This document shows, one piece after another, positions 2,066 through 12,093 of a stretch of DNA of 12,093 nucleotides. Positions within the stretch are counted from its first letter, which is position 1. Each line of letters begins with the position of its first letter. This DNA is from a virus (lineage: Duplodnaviria > Heunggongvirae > Uroviricota > Caudoviricetes): IMG/VR virus record IMGVR_UViG_2600254977_000008, one strand, 5' to 3'. Below the pieces are notes generated by a model, which saw only the letters and a program-made list of their open reading frames with translations, did not search any database and was not told the origin of the DNA. A program made the translations under genes and the position numbers.

Positions 2066-2255
2066 ACTGCAGGCGCTGCGTCAGGCGCGCCTTGATTTAT
2101 TAACCGGTAAACGGGTGGTGTCTGTCCAGAAAGATGGTCGCAGAATTGAATATACGGCGGCTTCTCTGGATGAGCTTAACCGGGCGATCAATGATGCGGA
2201 GTCGGTACTGGGGACAACCCGGTGTCGCCGTCGTCCGCTGGGAGTGAGGTTATGA
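2049..2255 (+). CDS. W: Head completion / head-tail joining protein (lambda gpW-like)
   Basis: 68-aa ORF, the same length as lambda gpW, with the conserved core LLTGKRVVSVQKDGRRIEYTAASLDEL. GGAGGAG lies just upstream of the ATG at 2049. It overlaps the end of A by 17 nt, and its stop overlaps the B start (ATGA). Confidence 0.9.
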   Translation: MVTVAELQALRQARLDLLTGKRVVSVQKDGRRIEYTAASLDELNRAINDAESVLGTTRCRRRPLGVRL

Positions 2256-3876
2256 AACGAACGCCTGTCCTGATTGATGTGAACGGCGTTCCGCTTCGTG
2301 AGAGTCTCAGCTACAACGGGGGCGGTGCAGGATTTGGCGGGCAAATGGCTGAGTGGTTGCCACCGGCGCAGAGTGCCGATGCGGCCCTGCTGCCCGCGTT
2401 GCGTCTGGGGAATGCCCGGGCAGATGATCTGGTGCGCAATAACGGAATAGCGGCTAATGCGGTGGCTCTGCATAAGGATCACATTGTCGGGCATATGTTT
2501 CTGATCAGCTACCGTCCGAACTGGCGCTGGCTGGGGATGCGGGAGACCGCAGCAAAAAGCTTTGTCGATGAGGTGGAGGCGGCCTGGTCGGAATACGCCG
2601 AAGGGATGTTTGGCGAGATCGANNNNNNNNNNNNNNNNNNNNNNNNNNNNNNNNNNNNNNNNNNNNNNNNNNNNNNNNNNNNNNNNNNNNNNNNNNNNNN
2701 NNNNNNNNNNNNNNNNNNNNNNNNNNNNNNNNNNNNNNNNNNNNNNNNNNNNNAACCACGCAGTTATTCCGTACGCGTTTTAAAGCCGTGAGTCCGAAAC
2801 GGGTGGACACGCCTGGACACGGTATGGGGAACCGTTTTCTGCGGGCCGGTGTGGAGGTCGATCGATATGGCCGTGCCGTCGCGTACCATATCTGTGAGGA
2901 TGATTTTCCGTTCTCTGGTAGTGGACGATGGGAACGGATCCCGCGTGAACTTCCCACCGGGCGTCCGGCCATGCTGCATATTTTCGAGCCGGTGGAGGAC
3001 GGGCAGACCCGTGGGGCTAATCAGTTTTACAGCGTCATGGAACGGCTGAAGATGCTCGATTCCCTGCAGGCAACACAGCTTCAGTCGGCCATAGTGAAGG
3101 CGATGTATGCAGCGACGATTGAAAGTGAACTTGATACCGAAAAGGCCTTTGAATATATCGCCGGCGCGCCACAGGAGCAGAAGGATAATCCGCTTATTAA
3201 TATTCTGGAGAAGTTTTCCAGCTGGTATGACACGAATAACGTGACACTGGGCGGTGTCAAAATTCCGCACCTTTTCCCTGGTGATGATCTGAAACTACAG
3301 ACTGCGCAGGATTCAGACAATGGATTTTCTGCGCTTGAACAGGCGCTGCTGCGGTATATCGCCGCCGGTCTTGGCGTTTCCTACGAACAGTTGTCCCGTG
3401 ATTACTCGAAGGTCAGTTACTCAAGTGCCCGCGCCTCCGCCAATGAGTCGTGGCGCTATTTTATGGGGCGGCGAAAATTTATTGCGGCCCGGCTGGCCAC
3501 GCAGATGTTTTCCTGCTGGCTGGAAGAGGCACTTCTTCGGGGGATTATTCGTCCGCCACGGGCACGTTTTGATTTTTATCAGGCGCGATCAGCCTGGTCA
3601 CGGGCAGAGTGGATTGGTGCCGGAAGAATGGCCATTGACGGGCTCAAGGAAGTCCAGGAATCAGTGATGCGCATTGAGGCCGGACTGAGCACGTATGAGA
3701 AAGAGCTGGCGCTGATGGGCGAGGATTATCAGGACATTTTCCGCCAGCAGGTCAGGGAATCTGCTGAGCGGCAAAAAGCCGGACTCTCACGTCCGGTGTG
3801 GATAGAGCAGGCGTATCAGCAGCAGATAGCGGAGAGTCGTAGGCCGGAAGAGGAGACAACACCACGTGAGACGTAA
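2252..3876 (+). CDS. B: Portal protein (lambda gpB-like), interrupted by a 131-nt N-run at 2623-2753
   Basis: ATG at 2252 preceded by GGAGTGAGG, then MKRTPVLIDVNGVPL...YNGGGAGFGGQ...LLPALRLGNARADDLVRNNG matching the lambda gpB N-terminus. After the gap: ...LFRTRFKAVSPKR...IPRELPTGRPAMLHIFEPVEDGQTRGANQFYSVME...LQSAIVKAMYAATIESELDT...LLRYIAAGLGVSYEQLSR...ARSAWSRAEWIGAGRMAIDGLKEVQE...GLSTYEKE, ending at TAA 3874-3876. Segments upstream and downstream of the N-run are in different frames (start positions 2252 versus 2755). Confidence 0.9.
2623..2753. other. Run of 131 N (masked or unsequenced gap) inside the portal gene
   Basis: Counted directly from the sequence. The flanking B-homologous frames are offset by one base relative to a 131-nt gap. 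Confidence 0.99.
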
Positions 3877-5371
3877 TCTTTCACACATTATTGCCGCAGC
3901 ATTCAATGAACCGCTGCTTCTGGAGCCCGCCTATGCGCGGGTTTTCTTTTGCGCGCTCGGGCGCGAGATGGGGGCAGCAAGTCTTTCGGTACCACAACAG
4001 CAGGTACAGTTTGATGCTCCCGGAATGCTGGCTGAAACGGACGAGTACATGGCCGGAGGTAAACGACCGGCCCGTGTTTACCGGGTGGTGAACGGTATTG
4101 CTGTACTGCCGGTGACCGGCACGCTGGTGCACCGGCTGGGTGGTATGCGGCCATTTTCCGGAATGACAGGCTATGACGGCATTGTCGCCTGTCTTCAGCA
4201 GGCAATGGCGGATAGCCAGGTGCGGGGCGTACTGCTGGACATTGACAGTCCGGGCGGGCAGGCCGCCGGCGCGTTTGACTGCGCTGACATGATTTACCGC
4301 CTCCGTCAGCAGAAGCCGGTCTGGGCACTGTGCAATGACACGGCCTGTTCTGCAGCCATGCTGCTGGCGTCGGCCTGCTCCCGACGGCTGGTTACCCAGA
4401 CATCCCGTATCGGCTCCATTGGCGTGATGATGAGCCATGTCAGCTATGCCGGTCATCTGGCGCAGGCCGGTGTGGATATCACGCTGATTTACTCAGGGGC
4501 GCACAAGGTGGATGGCAATCAGTTTGAAGCGTTGCCGGCAGAGGTTCGCCAGGACATGCAGCAGCGGATTGATGCGGCGCGCCGGATGTTTGCCGAAAAA
4601 GTGGCGATGTTTACCGGTCTGTCTGTTGATGCAGTCACGGGAACAGAGGCCGCTGTTTTTGAAGGTCAGTCCGGCATTGAGGCCGGGCTGGCGGATGAAT
4701 TAATCAATGCGTCGGATGCCATCAGTGTGATGGCCACGGCGCTGAACAGTAATGTCAGAGGAGGCACTATGCCGCAATTAACTGCAACGGAAGCCGCCGT
4801 GCAGGAGAACCAGCGAGTGATGGGGATCCTGACATGCCAGGAAGCGAAAGGACGTGAACAGCTTGCCACGATGCTGGCAGGGCAACAGGGCATGAGCGTT
4901 GAACAGGCCCGGGCGATTCTGGCCGCGGCGGCACCGCAGCAGCCGGTGGCATCCGCGCAGAGTGAAGCCGATCGCATTATGGCGTGTGAAGAAGCGAACG
5001 GTCGTGAACAACTGGCGGCAACGCTGGCGGCGATGCCGGAGATGACGGTGGAAAAAGCCCGCCCGATCCTGGCGGCTGCACCACTGGCGGATGCCGGGCC
5101 CTCGCTTCGTGATCAGATCATGGCCCTGGATGAGGCAAAAGGGGCAGAAGCGCAGGCTGAAAAACTGGCGGCCTGCCCGGGAATGACCGTGGAGAACGCC
5201 CGGGCTGTGCTGGCTGCGGGATCAGGTAAGGCCGAACCGGTCTCTGCATCCACAACCGCCCTGTTTGAACATTTCATGGCGAATCATTCACCGGCAGCGG
5301 TGCGGGGTGGCGTGTCACAGACGTCAGCAGACGGTGATGCGGACGTGAAAATGCTCATGGCCATGCCATGA
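3866..5371 (+). CDS. C: Prohead protease / minor capsid protein C (lambda gpC-like, S49 SppA-type serine protease fold) with a C-terminal scaffold-like repeat region
   Basis: 501-aa ORF whose only feasible start is GTG at 3866, just after an in-frame TAG at 3827-3829, with GAGGAGA 10 nt upstream. Conserved with lambda gpC: AFNEPLLLEPAYARVFFCAL, NGIAVLPVTGTLV, SGMTGYDGI, DSPGGQAAGAFDCAD, KPVWALCNDTACSAAMLLASACSRRLVTQTSRIGSIGVMM, GVDITLIYSGAHKVDGN, FTGLSV. Overlaps the B stop by 11 nt. Confidence 0.9.
   Translation: MRRNLSHIIAAAFNEPLLLEPAYARVFFCALGREMGAASLSVPQQQVQFDAPGMLAETDEYMAGGKRPARVYRVVNGIAVLPVTGTLVHRLGGMRPFSGMTGYDGIVACLQQAMADSQVRGVLLDIDSPGGQAAGAFDCADMIYRLRQQKPVWALCNDTACSAAMLLASACSRRLVTQTSRIGSIGVMMSHVSYAGHLAQAGVDITLIYSGAHKVDGNQFEALPAEVRQDMQQRIDAARRMFAEKVAMFTGLSVDAVTGTEAAVFEGQSGIEAGLADELINASDAISVMATALNSNVRGGTMPQLTATEAAVQENQRVMGILTCQEAKGREQLATMLAGQQGMSVEQARAILAAAAPQQPVASAQSEADRIMACEEANGREQLAATLAAMPEMTVEKARPILAAAPLADAGPSLRDQIMALDEAKGAEAQAEKLAACPGMTVENARAVLAAGSGKAEPVSASTTALFEHFMANHSPAAVRGGVSQTSADGDADVKMLMAMP
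4556..5371 (+). CDS. nu3: Possible nested in-frame scaffolding protein (Nu3-like) sharing the 3' end of C
   Basis: In lambda, Nu3 is translated from an internal in-frame start within C. Here an in-frame ATG at 4556 (MQQRIDAARRMFAEKV...) has GAGG 11 nt upstream and falls within a few codons of where I recall the lambda Nu3 start aligning. A second in-frame ATG at 4586 has no obvious SD. The exact start is unverified. Confidence 0.35.
   Translation: MQQRIDAARRMFAEKVAMFTGLSVDAVTGTEAAVFEGQSGIEAGLADELINASDAISVMATALNSNVRGGTMPQLTATEAAVQENQRVMGILTCQEAKGREQLATMLAGQQGMSVEQARAILAAAAPQQPVASAQSEADRIMACEEANGREQLAATLAAMPEMTVEKARPILAAAPLADAGPSLRDQIMALDEAKGAEAQAEKLAACPGMTVENARAVLAAGSGKAEPVSASTTALFEHFMANHSPAAVRGGVSQTSADGDADVKMLMAMP
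4814..5233 (+). repeat. Three tandem in-frame copies of a roughly 40-codon motif in the 3' part of C / Nu3
   Basis: Unit 1 (4814-4942) RVMGILTCQEAKGREQLATMLAGQQGMSVEQARAILAAAAPQQ. Unit 2 (4973-5092) RIMACEEANGREQLAATLAAMPEMTVEKARPILAAAPLAD. Unit 3 (5114-5233) QIMALDEAKGAEAQAEKLAACPGMTVENARAVLAAGSGKA. Similarity is also visible at the nucleotide level, for example gaagcgaaaggacgtgaacagcttgcc versus gaagcgaacggtcgtgaacaactggcg. Confidence 0.8.
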
Positions 5372-5407: not shown

Positions 5408-5755
5408 ATGGTGACGAAAACCATCACTGAACAGCGTGCGGAAGTACGTATTTTTGCCGGTAATGATCCGGCTCATACCGCCACAGGCAGCAGCGGGATT
5501 TCTTCTGCAACACCGGCTCTGACGCCCCTGATGCTGGATGAAGCCACCGGGAAACTGGTGGTCTGGGATGGACAGAAAGCCGGTAGTGCGGTTGGCATAC
5601 TGGTACTGCCGCTTGAAGGCACAGAGACGGTGCTGACCTATTACAAGTCGGGGACCTTTGCGACGGAGGCAATCCGCTGGCCTGACAGTGTGGATGAACA
5701 CAAAAAGGCAAATGCCTTTGCCGGCACAGCCCTGAGTCACGCGGCTCTGCCGTAA
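5408..5755 (+). CDS. D: Head decoration protein (lambda gpD-like)
   Basis: 115-aa ORF with GAGG about 10 nt upstream of ATG 5408. Conserved motifs NDPAHTAT, TPLMLD, KLVVWDG, AVGIL, YYKSGTF and AFAGTA. Confidence 0.9.
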   Translation: MVTKTITEQRAEVRIFAGNDPAHTATGSSGISSATPALTPLMLDEATGKLVVWDGQKAGSAVGILVLPLEGTETVLTYYKSGTFATEAIRWPDSVDEHKKANAFAGTALSHAALP

Positions 5756-5812: not shown

Positions 5813-6841
5813 ATGGGATTGTTTACGACCCGCCAGTTACTCGGTTATACCGAACAAAAAGTGAAATTCCGTGCGCTGTTTCTGGAGCTGTTTTTCCGCC
5901 GTACGGTGAATTTCCACACCGAAGAGGTGATGCTGGACAAAATTACCGGAAAAACGCCGGTGGCGGCCTATGTCTCCCCGATCGTTGAAGGAAAAGTGCT
6001 TCGCCATCGCGGTGGTGAAACCCGCGTGTTACGTCCGGGCTACGTCAAGCCGAAACACGAATTTAATTACCAGCAGGCGGTTGAGCGCCTTCCTGGTGAA
6101 GATCCGGCTCAGCTGAACGACCCGGCCTACCGTCGTCTGCGTATCATTACCGATAACCTCAAACAGGAAGAGCACGCCATTGTCCAGGTGGAAGAAATGC
6201 AGGCGGTGAATGCCGTGCTGTATGGCAAATACACCATGGAAGGGGATCAGTTTGATACTGTCGAGGTGGATTTCGGGCGCTCTGAAGGAAATAACATTGA
6301 GCAGGCTGACGGTAAAAAATGGTCTGAGCAGGACCGTGATACGTTTGATCCGACGCATGATATTGACCTCTACTGCGATCAGGCCAGCGGCCTTGTGAAT
6401 ATCGCCATTATGGACGGTACGGTCTGGCGTCTGCTGAATGGCTTTAAGCTGTTCCGCGAAAAACTGGATACCCGTCGCGGCTCAAATTCACAACTCGAAA
6501 CGGCAGTGAAAGATCTGGGCGCAGTGGTGTCCTTCAAGGGGTATTACGGCGATCTGGCCATTGTGGTGGCGAAAACGTCTTATGTGGCAGAGGACGGTAC
6601 CGAAAAACGTTATCTGCCGGAGGGCATGCTGGTGTTGGGGAATACGGCGGCAGAGGGGATTCGTTGCTATGGTGCCATTAAGGATGCACAGGCGTTGTCT
6701 GAAGGAGTGGTGGCTTCTTCCCGTTACCCGAAACACTGGCTGACCGTGGGCGATCCGTCCTGTGAATTCACCATGACGCAGTCCGCTCCGCTGATGGTGC
6801 TGCCGGATCCGGATGAGTTTGTGGTGGTACAGGTGAAATAA
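5813..6841 (+). CDS. E: Major capsid protein (lambda gpE-like)
   Basis: 342-aa ORF (lambda gpE is about 341 aa). Conserved blocks LFLELFFR, YVSPIV, PGYVKPKHE, DPAYRRLRII, AIVQVEEMQAVNAVLYGKYTM, EKLDTRRGSNSQLETAVKDLG, YGDLAIVV, MVLGNT, RYPKHWLTVGDPSCEFTMTQSAPLMVLPDPDEFV. Stop TAA at 6839-6841. Confidence 0.95.
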   Translation: MGLFTTRQLLGYTEQKVKFRALFLELFFRRTVNFHTEEVMLDKITGKTPVAAYVSPIVEGKVLRHRGGETRVLRPGYVKPKHEFNYQQAVERLPGEDPAQLNDPAYRRLRIITDNLKQEEHAIVQVEEMQAVNAVLYGKYTMEGDQFDTVEVDFGRSEGNNIEQADGKKWSEQDRDTFDPTHDIDLYCDQASGLVNIAIMDGTVWRLLNGFKLFREKLDTRRGSNSQLETAVKDLGAVVSFKGYYGDLAIVVAKTSYVAEDGTEKRYLPEGMLVLGNTAAEGIRCYGAIKDAQALSEGVVASSRYPKHWLTVGDPSCEFTMTQSAPLMVLPDPDEFVVVQVK

Positions 6842-9336: not shown

Positions 9337-9768
9337 ATGTTTCTGAAAACAGAACAATTTGAATATAACGGTGTGTCTGTCACGCTTTCCGAATTGTCTG
9401 CGCTGCAGCGTATCGAGCATCTTGCCCTCCTGAAACGGCGTGCAGAACAGGCAGAATCCTGCGGCAACCTGCAGGTAAGCGTGGAAGATCTCGTCAGAAC
9501 CGGCGCGTTTCTGGTGGCGATGTCCCTGTGGCATAACCATCCACAGAAAACGCAGTCACCGTCAATGAATGAGGCCGTGATGAAGATAGAGCAGGAAGTG
9601 CTCACCACCTGGCCTGCCGATGCCATTGCCCGGGCGGAAGACGTGGTGTTGTGCCTGTCCGGGATGATCGAAGCTGTTCGTCCGGATACTGATATTACTG
9701 AAGTGGCGAAAAATAACACGCTGACTGATGATGATTTTTCTGCGGGAAAGTCTTCGACGGCGAGCTGA
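9337..9768 (+). CDS. G: Tail assembly chaperone (lambda gpG-like), zero-frame product
   Basis: 143-aa ORF with GGAGG 6 nt upstream of the ATG. Conserved MFLKTE-FE-NGV-VTLSELSALQRIEHLAL-KR-AEQAES, TGAFLVAMSLWHNHPQKTQ-PSMNEAV, IEQEVLTTWP and the C-terminal SAGK-ST-S. TGA at 9766-9768. Confidence 0.95.
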   Translation: MFLKTEQFEYNGVSVTLSELSALQRIEHLALLKRRAEQAESCGNLQVSVEDLVRTGAFLVAMSLWHNHPQKTQSPSMNEAVMKIEQEVLTTWPADAIARAEDVVLCLSGMIEAVRPDTDITEVAKNNTLTDDDFSAGKSSTAS

Positions 9769-10208
9769 ACTTTGCCCTCAGACTGGCGCGTGAGATGGGG
9801 AGACCCGACTGGCGCGCCATGCTTGCCGGGATGACATCCACCGAATATGCCGACTGGCACCGTTTTTACCGCACGCATTATTTTCAGGATACCCAGCTGG
9901 ATATGCATTTTTCCGGGCTGACGTACGCTGTACTCAGCCTGTTTTTTTGCGATCCGGATATGCATCCCTCTGATTTCAGTCTGCTTGTCCCCCGGCATGA
10001 GGAAGAGCAGGTGGAGAGGCCGGATGAGGACAAAATGCTGATGCAGAAAGCGGCAGGACTTGCCGGAGGCGTCCGGTTCGGTGGGGACGGAGGGCGCGAT
10101 ATTTTATCGTCTGCGGATGTGGCGGATGTCATGGTGGATGATGCCGCATTAATGATGGCTTCAGCGGGGATTCCGGGAGGTGTGAGATATGTCCCAGCCG
10201 GTTGGTGA
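9337..10208 (+). CDS. T: Tail assembly chaperone G-T fusion made by programmed -1 ribosomal frameshift at 9744-9750; the T-frame part is 9750-10208
   Basis: Slippery heptamer G GGA AAG (zero-frame phasing) lies 5 codons before the G stop, as in lambda. The -1 frame is open from 9735 to TGA at 10206-10208 and encodes VFDGELNFALRLAREMGRPDWRAMLAGMTSTEYADWHRFY-THYFQD...DMHFSGLTY-VLSLFF-DPDMHP-DFSLL...LMQKAAGLAGGVRFG...AGGVRY, which matches lambda gpT. The ORF-track Met at 9795 is internal to this frame. Confidence 0.85.
9744..9750 (+). promoter_or_regulatory. Programmed -1 ribosomal frameshift slippery heptamer GGGAAAG (G-T frameshift site)
   Basis: The heptamer is phased G GGA AAG in the G frame, identical in sequence and relative position to the lambda G-T site. 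The -1 frame downstream is open and encodes a gpT homolog. Confidence 0.85.
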
Positions 10209-12093
10209 TCTTGTTATTGACCTGAGTCTGGATGCTGTCCGTTTCGATGAGCAGATGAGCCGGGTAAGGCGTCATTTTTCAGGTCTGGATACCGACGCCA
10301 GAAAAACCGCCAGTGCTGTTGAACAGGGCCTGAGCCGCCAGGCGCTGGCTGCACAAAAAGCCGGGATTTCCGTCGGGCAGTATAAAGCGGCCATGCGAAC
10401 CCTGCCCGCACAGTTTACGGATATCGCCACGCAGCTTGCCGGTGGTCAGAATCCCTGGTTGATCCTGCTGCAACAGGGCGGTCAGGTGAAGGACTCCTTC
10501 GGCGGGATGATCCCCATGTTCAGGGGGCTTGCCGGTGCGATCACCCTGCCGATGGTCGGGGTCACCTCGCTGGCGGTGGCGACAGGTGCGCTGGCGTACG
10601 CCTGGTACCAGGGCGACGCCACGCTTTCAGAATTTAATAAAACGCTGGTCCTTTCCGGCAATCAGGCCGGACTGACTGCCGATCGTATGCTGACGCTCTC
10701 AAGAGCCGGGCAGGCAGCAGGGCNNNNNNNNNNNNNNNNNNNNNNNNNNNNNNNNNNNNNNNNNNNNNNNNNNNNNNNNNNNNNNNGTCGCGCGTTTTGC
10801 GTCTGCATCCGGTGTGGAGGTGGATAAAGTCGCTGAAGCCTTCGGGAAGCTGACCACTGACCCGACGTCGGGACTGATGGCGATGGCGCGCCAGTTCCGT
10901 AACGTGACGGCAGAGCAGATTGCGTATGTTGCACAGCTGCAGCGTTCCGGAGACGAGGCCGGGGCATTGCAGGCGGCGAACGATATCGCCACGAAAGGCT
11001 TTGATGAGCAGACCCGTCGCCTGAAAGAAAACATGGGAACACTGGAGACCTGGGCGGATAAAACAGGGAAGGCATTCAAATCGATGTGGGATGCCATTCT
11101 GGATATCGGTCGTCCGGAATCCTCAGCGGATATGCTCGCCAGTGCGCAGAAGGCATTTGATGAGGCGGATAAAAAATGGCAGTGGTACCAGAGCCGGAGC
11201 CAGCGCCGGGGAAAGACCTCCTCTTTTCGTGCGAACCTTCAGGGGGCATGGGATGACCGGGAAAATGCCCGTCTGGGTCTGGCAGCGGCCACGCTGCAGT
11301 CGGATATGGAAAAAGCCGGTGAACTGGCGGCAAGGGACAGGGCTGAGCGTGAGTCGTCACAGCTGAAGTATACCGGAGAGGCGCAGAAGGCGTATGAGCG
11401 CCTGCAGACGCCGCTGGATAAATATACCGCCCGTCAGAAAGAGCTGAATAAGGCCCTGAAAGACGGAAAAATCCTGCAGGCGGATTACAACACGCTGATG
11501 GCGTCGGCAAAAAAGGATTATGAATCGACGCTGAAAAAGCCGTCAGGTGTGAAGGTGTCTGCCGGTGAGCGCCAGGAAGACCGGGCGCATGCAGCCCTGC
11601 TGGCGCTTGAAACCGAGCTCAGGACGCTGGAAAAACACAGCGGTGTGAATGAGAAAATCAGCCAGCAGCGCCGGGATTTATGGGAAGCGGAAAGTCAGTA
11701 TGTGGTCCTGAAAGAGGCCGCCACGAAACGGCAGTTATCTGAGCAGGAAAAATCCCTGCTGGCTCATGAGAAAGAGACGCTGGAGTACAAACGCCAGCTG
11801 GCTGAGCTGGGAGACAAGATTGAACACCAGAAGCGGCTGAATGAGCTGGCACAGCAGGCGGCGCGGTTTGAACAGCAGCAAAGCGCGAAGCAGGCGGCAA
11901 TCAGCGCAAAAGCCCGCGGCCTCACCGACCGTCAGGCGCAGCGGGAGTCGGAAGAGCAGCGCCTTCGTGAGGTGTACGGTGATAATCCGGCTGCGCTGGC
12001 GAAGGCCACATCGGCACTGAAGAACACCTGGTCTGCGGAGGAGCAGCTTCGTGGAAGCTGGATGGCCGGGATGAAGTCCGGCTGGGGAGAGTG
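10189..12093 (+). CDS. H: Tail tape measure protein (lambda gpH-like), 3' partial, interrupted by a 63-nt N-run at 10724-10786
   Basis: ATG at 10189 with GGGAGG 8 nt upstream, overlapping the T-frame stop by 20 nt. N-terminus PVGDLV-DLSLDA-RFDEQM-RVRRHFSG...QALAAQKAGISVGQYKAAMR-LPAQFTD-ATQLAGGQ-PWLILLQQGGQVKDSFGGMIPMFRGLAGAITLPMVG-TSLAVATGALAYAWYQG...FNKTLVLSGNQAGLTADRML-LSRAGQAAG. After the gap (frame shifted by 1): VARF-SASGVEVDKVAEAFGKLTTDPTSGL-AMARQF-NV-AEQIAYVAQLQRSGDEAGALQAAN...RRLKENMGTLETWAD...KSMWDA-LDIGRP ... KALKDGKILQADYNTLMA-AKKDYE-TLKKP...ISQQRRDLW-AESQ...GLTDRQA-RE. It continues past the window end. Confidence 0.9.
10724..10786. other. Run of 63 N (masked or unsequenced gap) inside the tape measure gene
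   Basis: Counted directly from the sequence. The flanking H-homologous frames are offset by one base even though 63 is a multiple of 3. Confidence 0.99.

Follow-up and report, generated by a model that had tools for sequence, protein, structure and literature searches.

The window, i.e., the whole 12,093-nucleotide (nt) stretch of DNA from the virus record IMGVR_UViG_2600254977_000008 (Caudoviricetes), carries on its plus strand, at 3866..5371, a head maturation protease gene homologous to lambda C and phage 21 gene 5, which starts with GTG and encodes a protein of 501 amino acids (aa) whose C-terminal part contains three copies of one motif. These copies are almost certainly the three Tri boxes of the phage-21-type head protease/scaffold pair. 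The protein matches phrog_53 (head maturation protease) at 1.9e-228, and its S49 (SppA/ClpP-like) peptidase domain occupies 4301..4744 on the same strand (aa 146-293; Pfam PF01343 at 1.5e-34 and NCBIfam SppA_dom). Residue alignment pairs its Ser162 (nt 4349-4351) and Lys214 with Ser166 and Lys218 of lambda C, the former being reportedly the catalytic residue in the work of Medina et al. from 2010. In the same reading frame is a nested scaffold gene, the homolog of lambda Nu3 and phage 21 gene 6 (4769..5371, plus strand, ATG start), with a Shine-Dalgarno sequence, GGAGG, ahead of it at 4760..4764 (plus strand); this ribosome-binding site (RBS) is annotated in both phage 21 records. The product predicted from the sequence is the C-terminal 200 aa of the protease, that is, the three boxes and a tail; its initiator Met is invariant in an alignment of 20 homologs, and many database proteins begin exactly there. 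In the 501-aa protein the S49 domain is followed by a short linker, then by the three boxes, which are separated by linkers of 9 and 7 residues rich in Pro, Ala and Gln, and finally by a 48-residue tail (5225..5368, plus strand, aa 454-501) in which a helix is predicted (ALFEHFMANH) and the end, LMxMP, is conserved. Alignments make this tail homologous to the one that follows the box in lambda (ALDRLMQG...LLNTPV).

A hidden Markov model (HMM) of the unit set the boundaries of the boxes, all on the plus strand: box 1 (Tri1) at 4805..4936 (aa 314-357; ENQRVMGILTCQEAKGREQLATMLAGQQGMSVEQARAILAAAAP), placed by the lambda alignment as well, box 2 (Tri2) at 4964..5083 (aa 367-406; EADRIMACEEANGREQLAATLAAMPEMTVEKARPILAAAP) and box 3 (Tri3) at 5105..5224 (aa 414-453; LRDQIMALDEAKGAEAQAEKLAACPGMTVENARAVLAAGS). 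An earlier reading of the letters of this DNA, the sequence-only reading, had described three motif copies spaced 159 and 141 nt apart, and so they are: [RQ][IV]M[AG] recurs at aa 317, 370 and 417 (nt 4814, 4973 and 5114), and local alignments of unit against unit score 84-103 (BLOSUM62), compared with a mean of ~25 for shuffles (standard deviation ~5, maximum 50), i.e., z = 12-16. It had also placed this scaffold-type motif in the overlap of C and Nu3, which the GGAGG and ATG described above support, as does the gene 6 or scaffold entry in both phage 21 records. Each unit aligns with the one copy in lambda at z = 15-23, and the unit HMM finds three matches, of 78-81 bits each, in the near-identical protein P0001. 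Box 1 is the positional counterpart of lambda's lone box, with which it has a VMG/IMG insertion in common. The net charges of boxes 1-3 are 0, -3 and -2. Tandem Repeats Finder and a direct-repeat finder gave only short chance matches in the window DNA, so the repeat is seen at the protein level only.

The gene is 98% identical in nucleotides to gene 5/6 of phage 21, and over its full length the window has 90-97% identity to 21-type lambdoid phages; it is the head-tail module of a phage-21-like prophage. GenBank record M81255.1 ("Bacteriophage 21 head gene operon") contains gene 5 and a nested gene 6 with its own RBS, and inside gene 6 three repeat_region features named "Tri1 box", "Tri box" and "Tri3 box", all of which bear the remark "function unknown; putative". 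They map to window positions 4836-4939, 4976-5086 and 5117-5230, all within 4814-5233. The complete genome of phage 21 (OL657228.1) labels the pair "capsid protease/scaffolding protein" and "scaffolding protein". The triplication is therefore already known through the annotation of phage 21, a prior description that the feature table of a 1990s record documents. Gene boundaries, nested start with RBS and all three boxes match between phage 21 and the window, and the proteins differ at 11 of 501 aa by point substitutions only (among them V312A, A364T, A373V, A405S, L407Q, K433Q and N444S), five of which are in boxes, four in inter-box linkers and none in the protease domain. The sequence-only reading had taken three copies to be unusual, while allowing that the same number in close relatives would make them a conserved feature; since phage 21, a true close relative at 98% identity, has the same three Tri boxes, the feature is conserved rather than unusual. 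Two details of the phage 21 records may be added. The "Tri1 box" of M81255.1 (2471-2574 there) has a start that is shifted by one base from the frame of Tri2 and Tri3 and lies 31 nt downstream of the point at which unit 1 begins according to the HMM, an annotation quirk and not a biological difference. OL657228.1 also places two "CII binding sites" on the minus strand within gene 6 (2409-2422 and 2643-2656, window ~4774-4787 and ~5008-5021), which rest solely on the pattern ttgynnnnnnttgy and are probably chance matches.

How old the triplication is, and whether it is maintained, can be read from the units themselves. Alignment in register shows 47-60% identity between them at the protein level and 55-66% in DNA; at third codon positions the identity is 35-40%, i.e., near saturation, and identical amino acids share a codon in 38-47% of cases. 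The low identity in DNA and at third positions therefore points to an old duplication conserved at the protein level. A cis-acting DNA or RNA role of the repeat was considered and rejected, since the conservation is at the amino-acid level only. The ratio of nonsynonymous to synonymous polymorphism (pN/pS) was summed over the window allele and those of related loci, 64 distinct ones of 501 codons each, which as relatives are not independent counts. Boxes 1-3 have values of 0.12, 0.17 and 0.13, the protease domain 0.10, the linkers (three in number) 0.76, 0.78 and 0.24, and the C-terminal tail 0.30. Purifying selection acts on each box, and the three are old paralogs that it has kept. The boxes of the Escherichia coli 21-type and the Salmonella Gifsy-type proteins are mutual best matches by position (82% for the first pair, 80% for the second, 69% for the third), and the triplication is therefore older than the split between the E. 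coli and Salmonella homologs. The gene is also stable and widespread: it has exactly 501 codons in 84 of 85 alleles (the window and 84 related loci, fetched with a single protein as query and comprising close relatives only, at 71-99% identity); among 5426 complete E. coli genomes, 1866 have at least 80% of it, often in multiple copies.

These observations bear directly on the idea that the repeat is a product of recent replication slippage, an assembly artefact or a functionless neutral expansion, the first two of which the sequence-only reading had entertained. Expansion and contraction do occur here, as seen in two-box deletion variants (P0013 and P0019, both rare and on single contigs only) and in a four-box variant whose boxes 2-4 share 82-89% identity, a sign that unequal recombination happens in the region. 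Against the idea stand, however, the lack of a detectable DNA tandem repeat, the near-saturated third positions, the low pN/pS of every box, the constant length among alleles, the 1866 complete genomes and a triplication that predates the E. coli/Salmonella homolog split. This explanation is refuted, and we leave it virtually no probability.

The box is found well beyond phage 21, nearly always as a single copy. With one unit as a tblastn query it was present in 181 of 50,697 phage records, including lambda, N15, phi80, HK629 and mEp237 and phages of Aeromonas, Vibrio, Xanthomonas, Stenotrophomonas, Proteus and Serratia, all with one copy; multiple copies among the phage records were seen in 21-like phages and Gifsy-1. 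When a profile built from 31 units was run against 1.84 billion representative proteins (clusters at 50% identity), 1432 matched at E<=1e-3, and among the best 150 of these, 137 had one box, ten had two and three had three; for the proteins of at least 380 aa among those 150, the figure was one box in 48 of 50. As most homologs, in phages of Gammaproteobacteria whose head modules are lambda-type, have one box, the one-box state is common and probably ancestral. The three-box form is a minority in sequence space and, at the same time, very abundant in E. coli and Salmonella prophages; phage 21 and the Gifsy-1 type have three boxes, lambda and most relatives one. The four-box variant of E. coli (P0025; L090:1-1043) is found in 104 complete genomes (e.g., NZ_CP041435.1, 2573566-2574309), and the high identity of its boxes 2-4 indicates a more recent expansion by unequal recombination. 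In P0110 and in P0102, each protein's two boxes are each other's closest relatives. On such sequence relationships, copy number has expanded to two, three or four several times, independently.

Curated domain collections have no model for the unit: over aa 314-453 there was no Pfam match beyond S49 at E<=1, and no NCBIfam model matched the 200-aa scaffold. Two PHROG families, phrog_8399 ("head scaffolding protein") and phrog_8940 ("capsid assembly protein"), match three stretches each. The genes encoding the box-bearing proteases of the phages Xanthomonas FoX4, Vibrio K288, Proteus PM87 and Aeromonas 13AC503A lie in the same type of module, in the order terminase, adaptor, portal, protease, decorator and major capsid protein, with a PF03864 E-family capsid protein in all four. 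A few matches were of a different kind. P0091 is a stand-alone two-box protein of 195 aa (L089:4001-4588; Logan SRR25568644, a contig numbered 270, of 23.7 kb) that has no adjoining S49 protease; upstream of it is a small-terminase-like open reading frame (ORF), and on its downstream side are an ORF of 297 aa, which matched nothing in Pfam or PHROG, and a tape-measure-like protein of 828 aa. P0091 could represent a scaffold uncoupled from the protease, or belong to a satellite-like element with its own scaffold. P0149 (844 aa) joins a tape-measure N-terminus to full-length lambda C, and in P0122 (439 aa) the C-terminal half of lambda C follows a portal-like N-terminus; both have the look of prophage rearrangements or gene miscalls, and not of natural domain architectures.

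The window is the structural module from the left arm of a lambdoid prophage. The large terminase gene (95-2065) and the portal gene (~2222-3876, split by a run of N) precede the C homolog, and after it come a decoration-type small ORF (D/shp homolog, 5408-5755), the gene for an E-family major capsid protein (5813-6841; PF03864 at 1.8e-65) and, 3' of the capsid gene, head-completion and tail genes; the C homolog thus sits between the portal gene and the D/shp and E-family capsid genes, as in the phage 21 head module. Runs of N at 2623-2753 (131 bases) and 10724-10786 (63 bases) interrupt the portal and tape-measure genes, respectively; ORF calls across them are unreliable. At the end of the G-like ORF (9337-9768), ahead of the T-like ORF (9795-10208), is a GGGAAAG heptamer (9744-9750), which is expected to be the -1 frameshift site of a lambda-type G/GT pair.

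Structure prediction with AlphaFold2, given the 200-aa protein with 20 homologs or a single unit with 31 aligned units, portrays the scaffold as a series of small folded elements. For the 200-aa protein, the predicted local distance difference test score (pLDDT) is 70-80 in the boxes and at most 62 in the linkers and tail, with a predicted template modelling score (pTM) of 0.27, a combination that implies ordered beads with no fixed mutual arrangement; helices in the tail, at 160-173 and 192-196, are of low confidence. The single unit is modelled at pLDDT 86, with helices at residues 2-9, 18-25 and 32-41. Each box is accordingly predicted to be a small three-helix bundle, strung like a bead on disordered Pro/Ala/Gln-rich linkers. 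The sequence-only reading had proposed to look for a helix-turn-helix in each unit; the models do predict helices, though three per unit and not two. The invariant A-K-G-R-E lies in the loop ahead of helix 2, G-M-[ST] caps helix 3, and conservation spans the hydrophobic core of all three helices. Foldseek searches with the 200-aa model and with the single-unit model produced no significant match, and a PDB sequence search with the unit profile returned designed helical-repeat proteins only; homology to a solved scaffold domain therefore cannot be claimed.

The C protein of lambda has a homologous S49 protease (53% identity), lambda's scaffold gene is nested in frame, the pair has the same place in the head module, and a box that is orthologous to box 1 of the window is followed by a C-terminal tail that is homologous too. 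The differences are that lambda C has just this box (~aa 358-400) and 439 aa as opposed to 501, as the sequence-only reading had stated and NC_001416 confirms, and that its protease-to-box linker is ~50 aa longer than in the window protein. The annotated nu3 start (nt 5132, Met239 of C) is not homologous to the ATG at window 4769, and no obvious Shine-Dalgarno sequence precedes it. The ATG of Met309 (nt 5342) has AGGAGG ahead of it, and its position is homologous to the phage 21 gene 6 start and window ATG 4769; judging from these features, the lambda scaffold may start at 5342 (131 aa) and not at 5132 (201 aa). Separately called lambda-like proteins of 137 aa (P0088-P0090, of which P0088 was read) may fit the 5342 start. 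A length constraint, suggested by the 200 aa of phage 21 gp6 and the 201 aa of annotated lambda Nu3, was rejected because the two starts are not homologous.

Other scaffolds resemble that of the window to varying degrees. The Salmonella Gifsy-1-type prohead protease has three boxes that correspond position by position (69-82% identity per box), and differs in its ~60-65% identity over the scaffold part and in a longer C-terminal extension. The helix-turn-helix at the C-terminus of the P22 scaffold, with the helical scaffold motifs of phi29, 80alpha and SPP1, may be, in function, an analogous case of a small helical module in a largely disordered scaffold. However, the box of the window, with three predicted helices in place of two, is repeated, is not at the extreme C-terminus (the 48-aa tail comes after) and is neutral to acidic, whereas the P22 hairpin is basic; no P22 scaffold chain was among the fold matches listed, and there was no sequence match or significant fold match to P22-type motifs. 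To our knowledge, no Tri-box motif occurs in the protease-scaffolds of P2, Mu or the T1-like phages, whose protease and scaffold sequences are unlike those of the window. What P2 (gpO), Mu (gpI/gpZ) and T1-like phages do have in common with it is the architecture, i.e., an N-terminal prohead protease and a C-terminal helical scaffolding domain in one gene or nested genes (PMC8508860; bioRxiv 10.1101/2023.05.21.541620).

What the box does can be approached from lambda, in which Nu3 is the scaffold, is required for proheads to assemble, is needed for portal incorporation and is degraded by gpC (PMC3224144; PMC8508860), and in which Nu3 is reported to interact with E, with itself and with C, the Nu3-E interaction having been found by two-hybrid assay (PMC3224144). 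In P22, phi29, SPP1 and 80alpha, the scaffolds are largely disordered and bind coat through small helical motifs (PMC11565965). We propose that the box is a protein-docking module, by which the scaffold, and the protease that has the same C-terminus, would attach to the inner face of the assembling E-family shell. Such docking would co-localise protease and scaffold in the procapsid ahead of the degradation of the scaffold by the protease, and with three boxes one molecule would be multivalent and could hold as many as three capsid subunits together or bind more avidly, in contrast to a monovalent lambda scaffold. The suggestion of the sequence-only reading that an expanded repeat could alter assembly stoichiometry or capsid-binding valency is a reasonable hypothesis. 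Indirect evidence for binding to the capsid protein comes from the Nu3-E interaction of lambda and from the constant company of E-family capsid genes in the box-bearing modules. That the box is a selected, foldable unit common to protease and scaffold is established by the evidence above. Taken as a whole, the explanation, in which Tri-box identity is combined with docking that would tether the scaffold and the protease to the capsid, is one we lean toward, if narrowly; that the capsid specifically is what the box docks on seems a nearly balanced proposition that tilts slightly to the negative. The further step, in which the box is the actual capsid-docking element and the independent expansions from one to two, three or four copies adaptively tune the valency of the scaffold or how visible it is to host defences, strikes us as doubtful; host defences that sense scaffold domains have been reported for the cyclic-oligonucleotide-based antiphage signaling system (CBASS) and T1-like protease-scaffold fusions.

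Several points weigh against docking on the capsid. In P22 and HK97 it is extreme C-termini that bind the capsid, and by analogy the conserved C-terminal tail of the window protein, not the boxes, could be its capsid-binding element. The boxes, neutral to acidic, are unlike the basic coat-binding helix-turn-helix of P22; the stand-alone two-box protein (on L089) adjoins a 297-aa ORF with no E-family match; the pN/pS values that speak for selection are sums over related alleles and not independent counts; and M81255.1 itself calls the function of the Tri box unknown. The literature searched offered no function for the box; a full-text search for the motif EAKGRE brought up nothing relevant, and the paper on the JBD30 procapsid contained no relevant information on scaffold contacts.

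The same interactions in lambda can be read differently, in that the boxes might be self-association modules through which scaffold would oligomerise with scaffold or protease and make no contact with the shell, extra copies making for a network of higher order. For lambda, interactions of Nu3 with Nu3 and of C with Nu3 are indeed reported (PMC3224144), the boxes are the sole well-ordered part of an otherwise disordered protein in the AlphaFold2 model, and small three-helix bundles often serve as homotypic or heterotypic binding units. Yet AlphaFold2 does not pack the three boxes together (pTM 0.27) and a single box suffices in lambda, and we regard self-association as rather unlikely. Scaffold is in large excess over the 12 portal subunits, a stoichiometry that is hard to reconcile with boxes that dock onto the portal (gpB/gp4), nucleating assembly and incorporating the portal. 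Box-bearing proteases always come directly after a lambda-family portal gene in the four distant phages, but this adjacency is accounted for by conserved module order. Some members of phrog_21, a PHROG portal family, are portal-protease fusions with a match to the region, and Nu3 is required for B to enter the procapsid (Ray and Murialdo 1975, as tabulated in PMC3224144), whereas two-hybrid screening found no Nu3-B interaction (PMC3224144), and portal docking is on balance improbable.

In lambda-type phages the scaffold is broken down by the protease (PMC3224144; PMC8508860), and the boxes might instead be repeated substrate cassettes, each with a recognition or cleavage site for the S49 enzyme (e.g., the EAKGRE loop), so that small pieces could exit the procapsid. 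The most invariant residues, A-K-G-R-E, are in the loop between helices 1 and 2, as this would have it, but the conservation extends over the hydrophobic core of three helices, which fits a folded domain and not a linear site, and the disordered linkers are the more plausible targets of cleavage; we think it very improbable that cleavage is what the boxes serve.

For genome scanning the triplication carries little weight, being a conserved and already annotated trait of phage-21-type head genes, which abound in E. coli prophages. In phage assembly biology it is of some residual interest. The Tri box is conserved across many lambda-type head modules, has no curated domain model and exists in nature in one to four copies, and these natural variants are a simple experimental handle on scaffold valency. 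If the box does tether scaffold and protease to the capsid, the 21-type and lambda-type heads would be a natural experiment in multivalent and monovalent scaffolding of the same T=7 shell.

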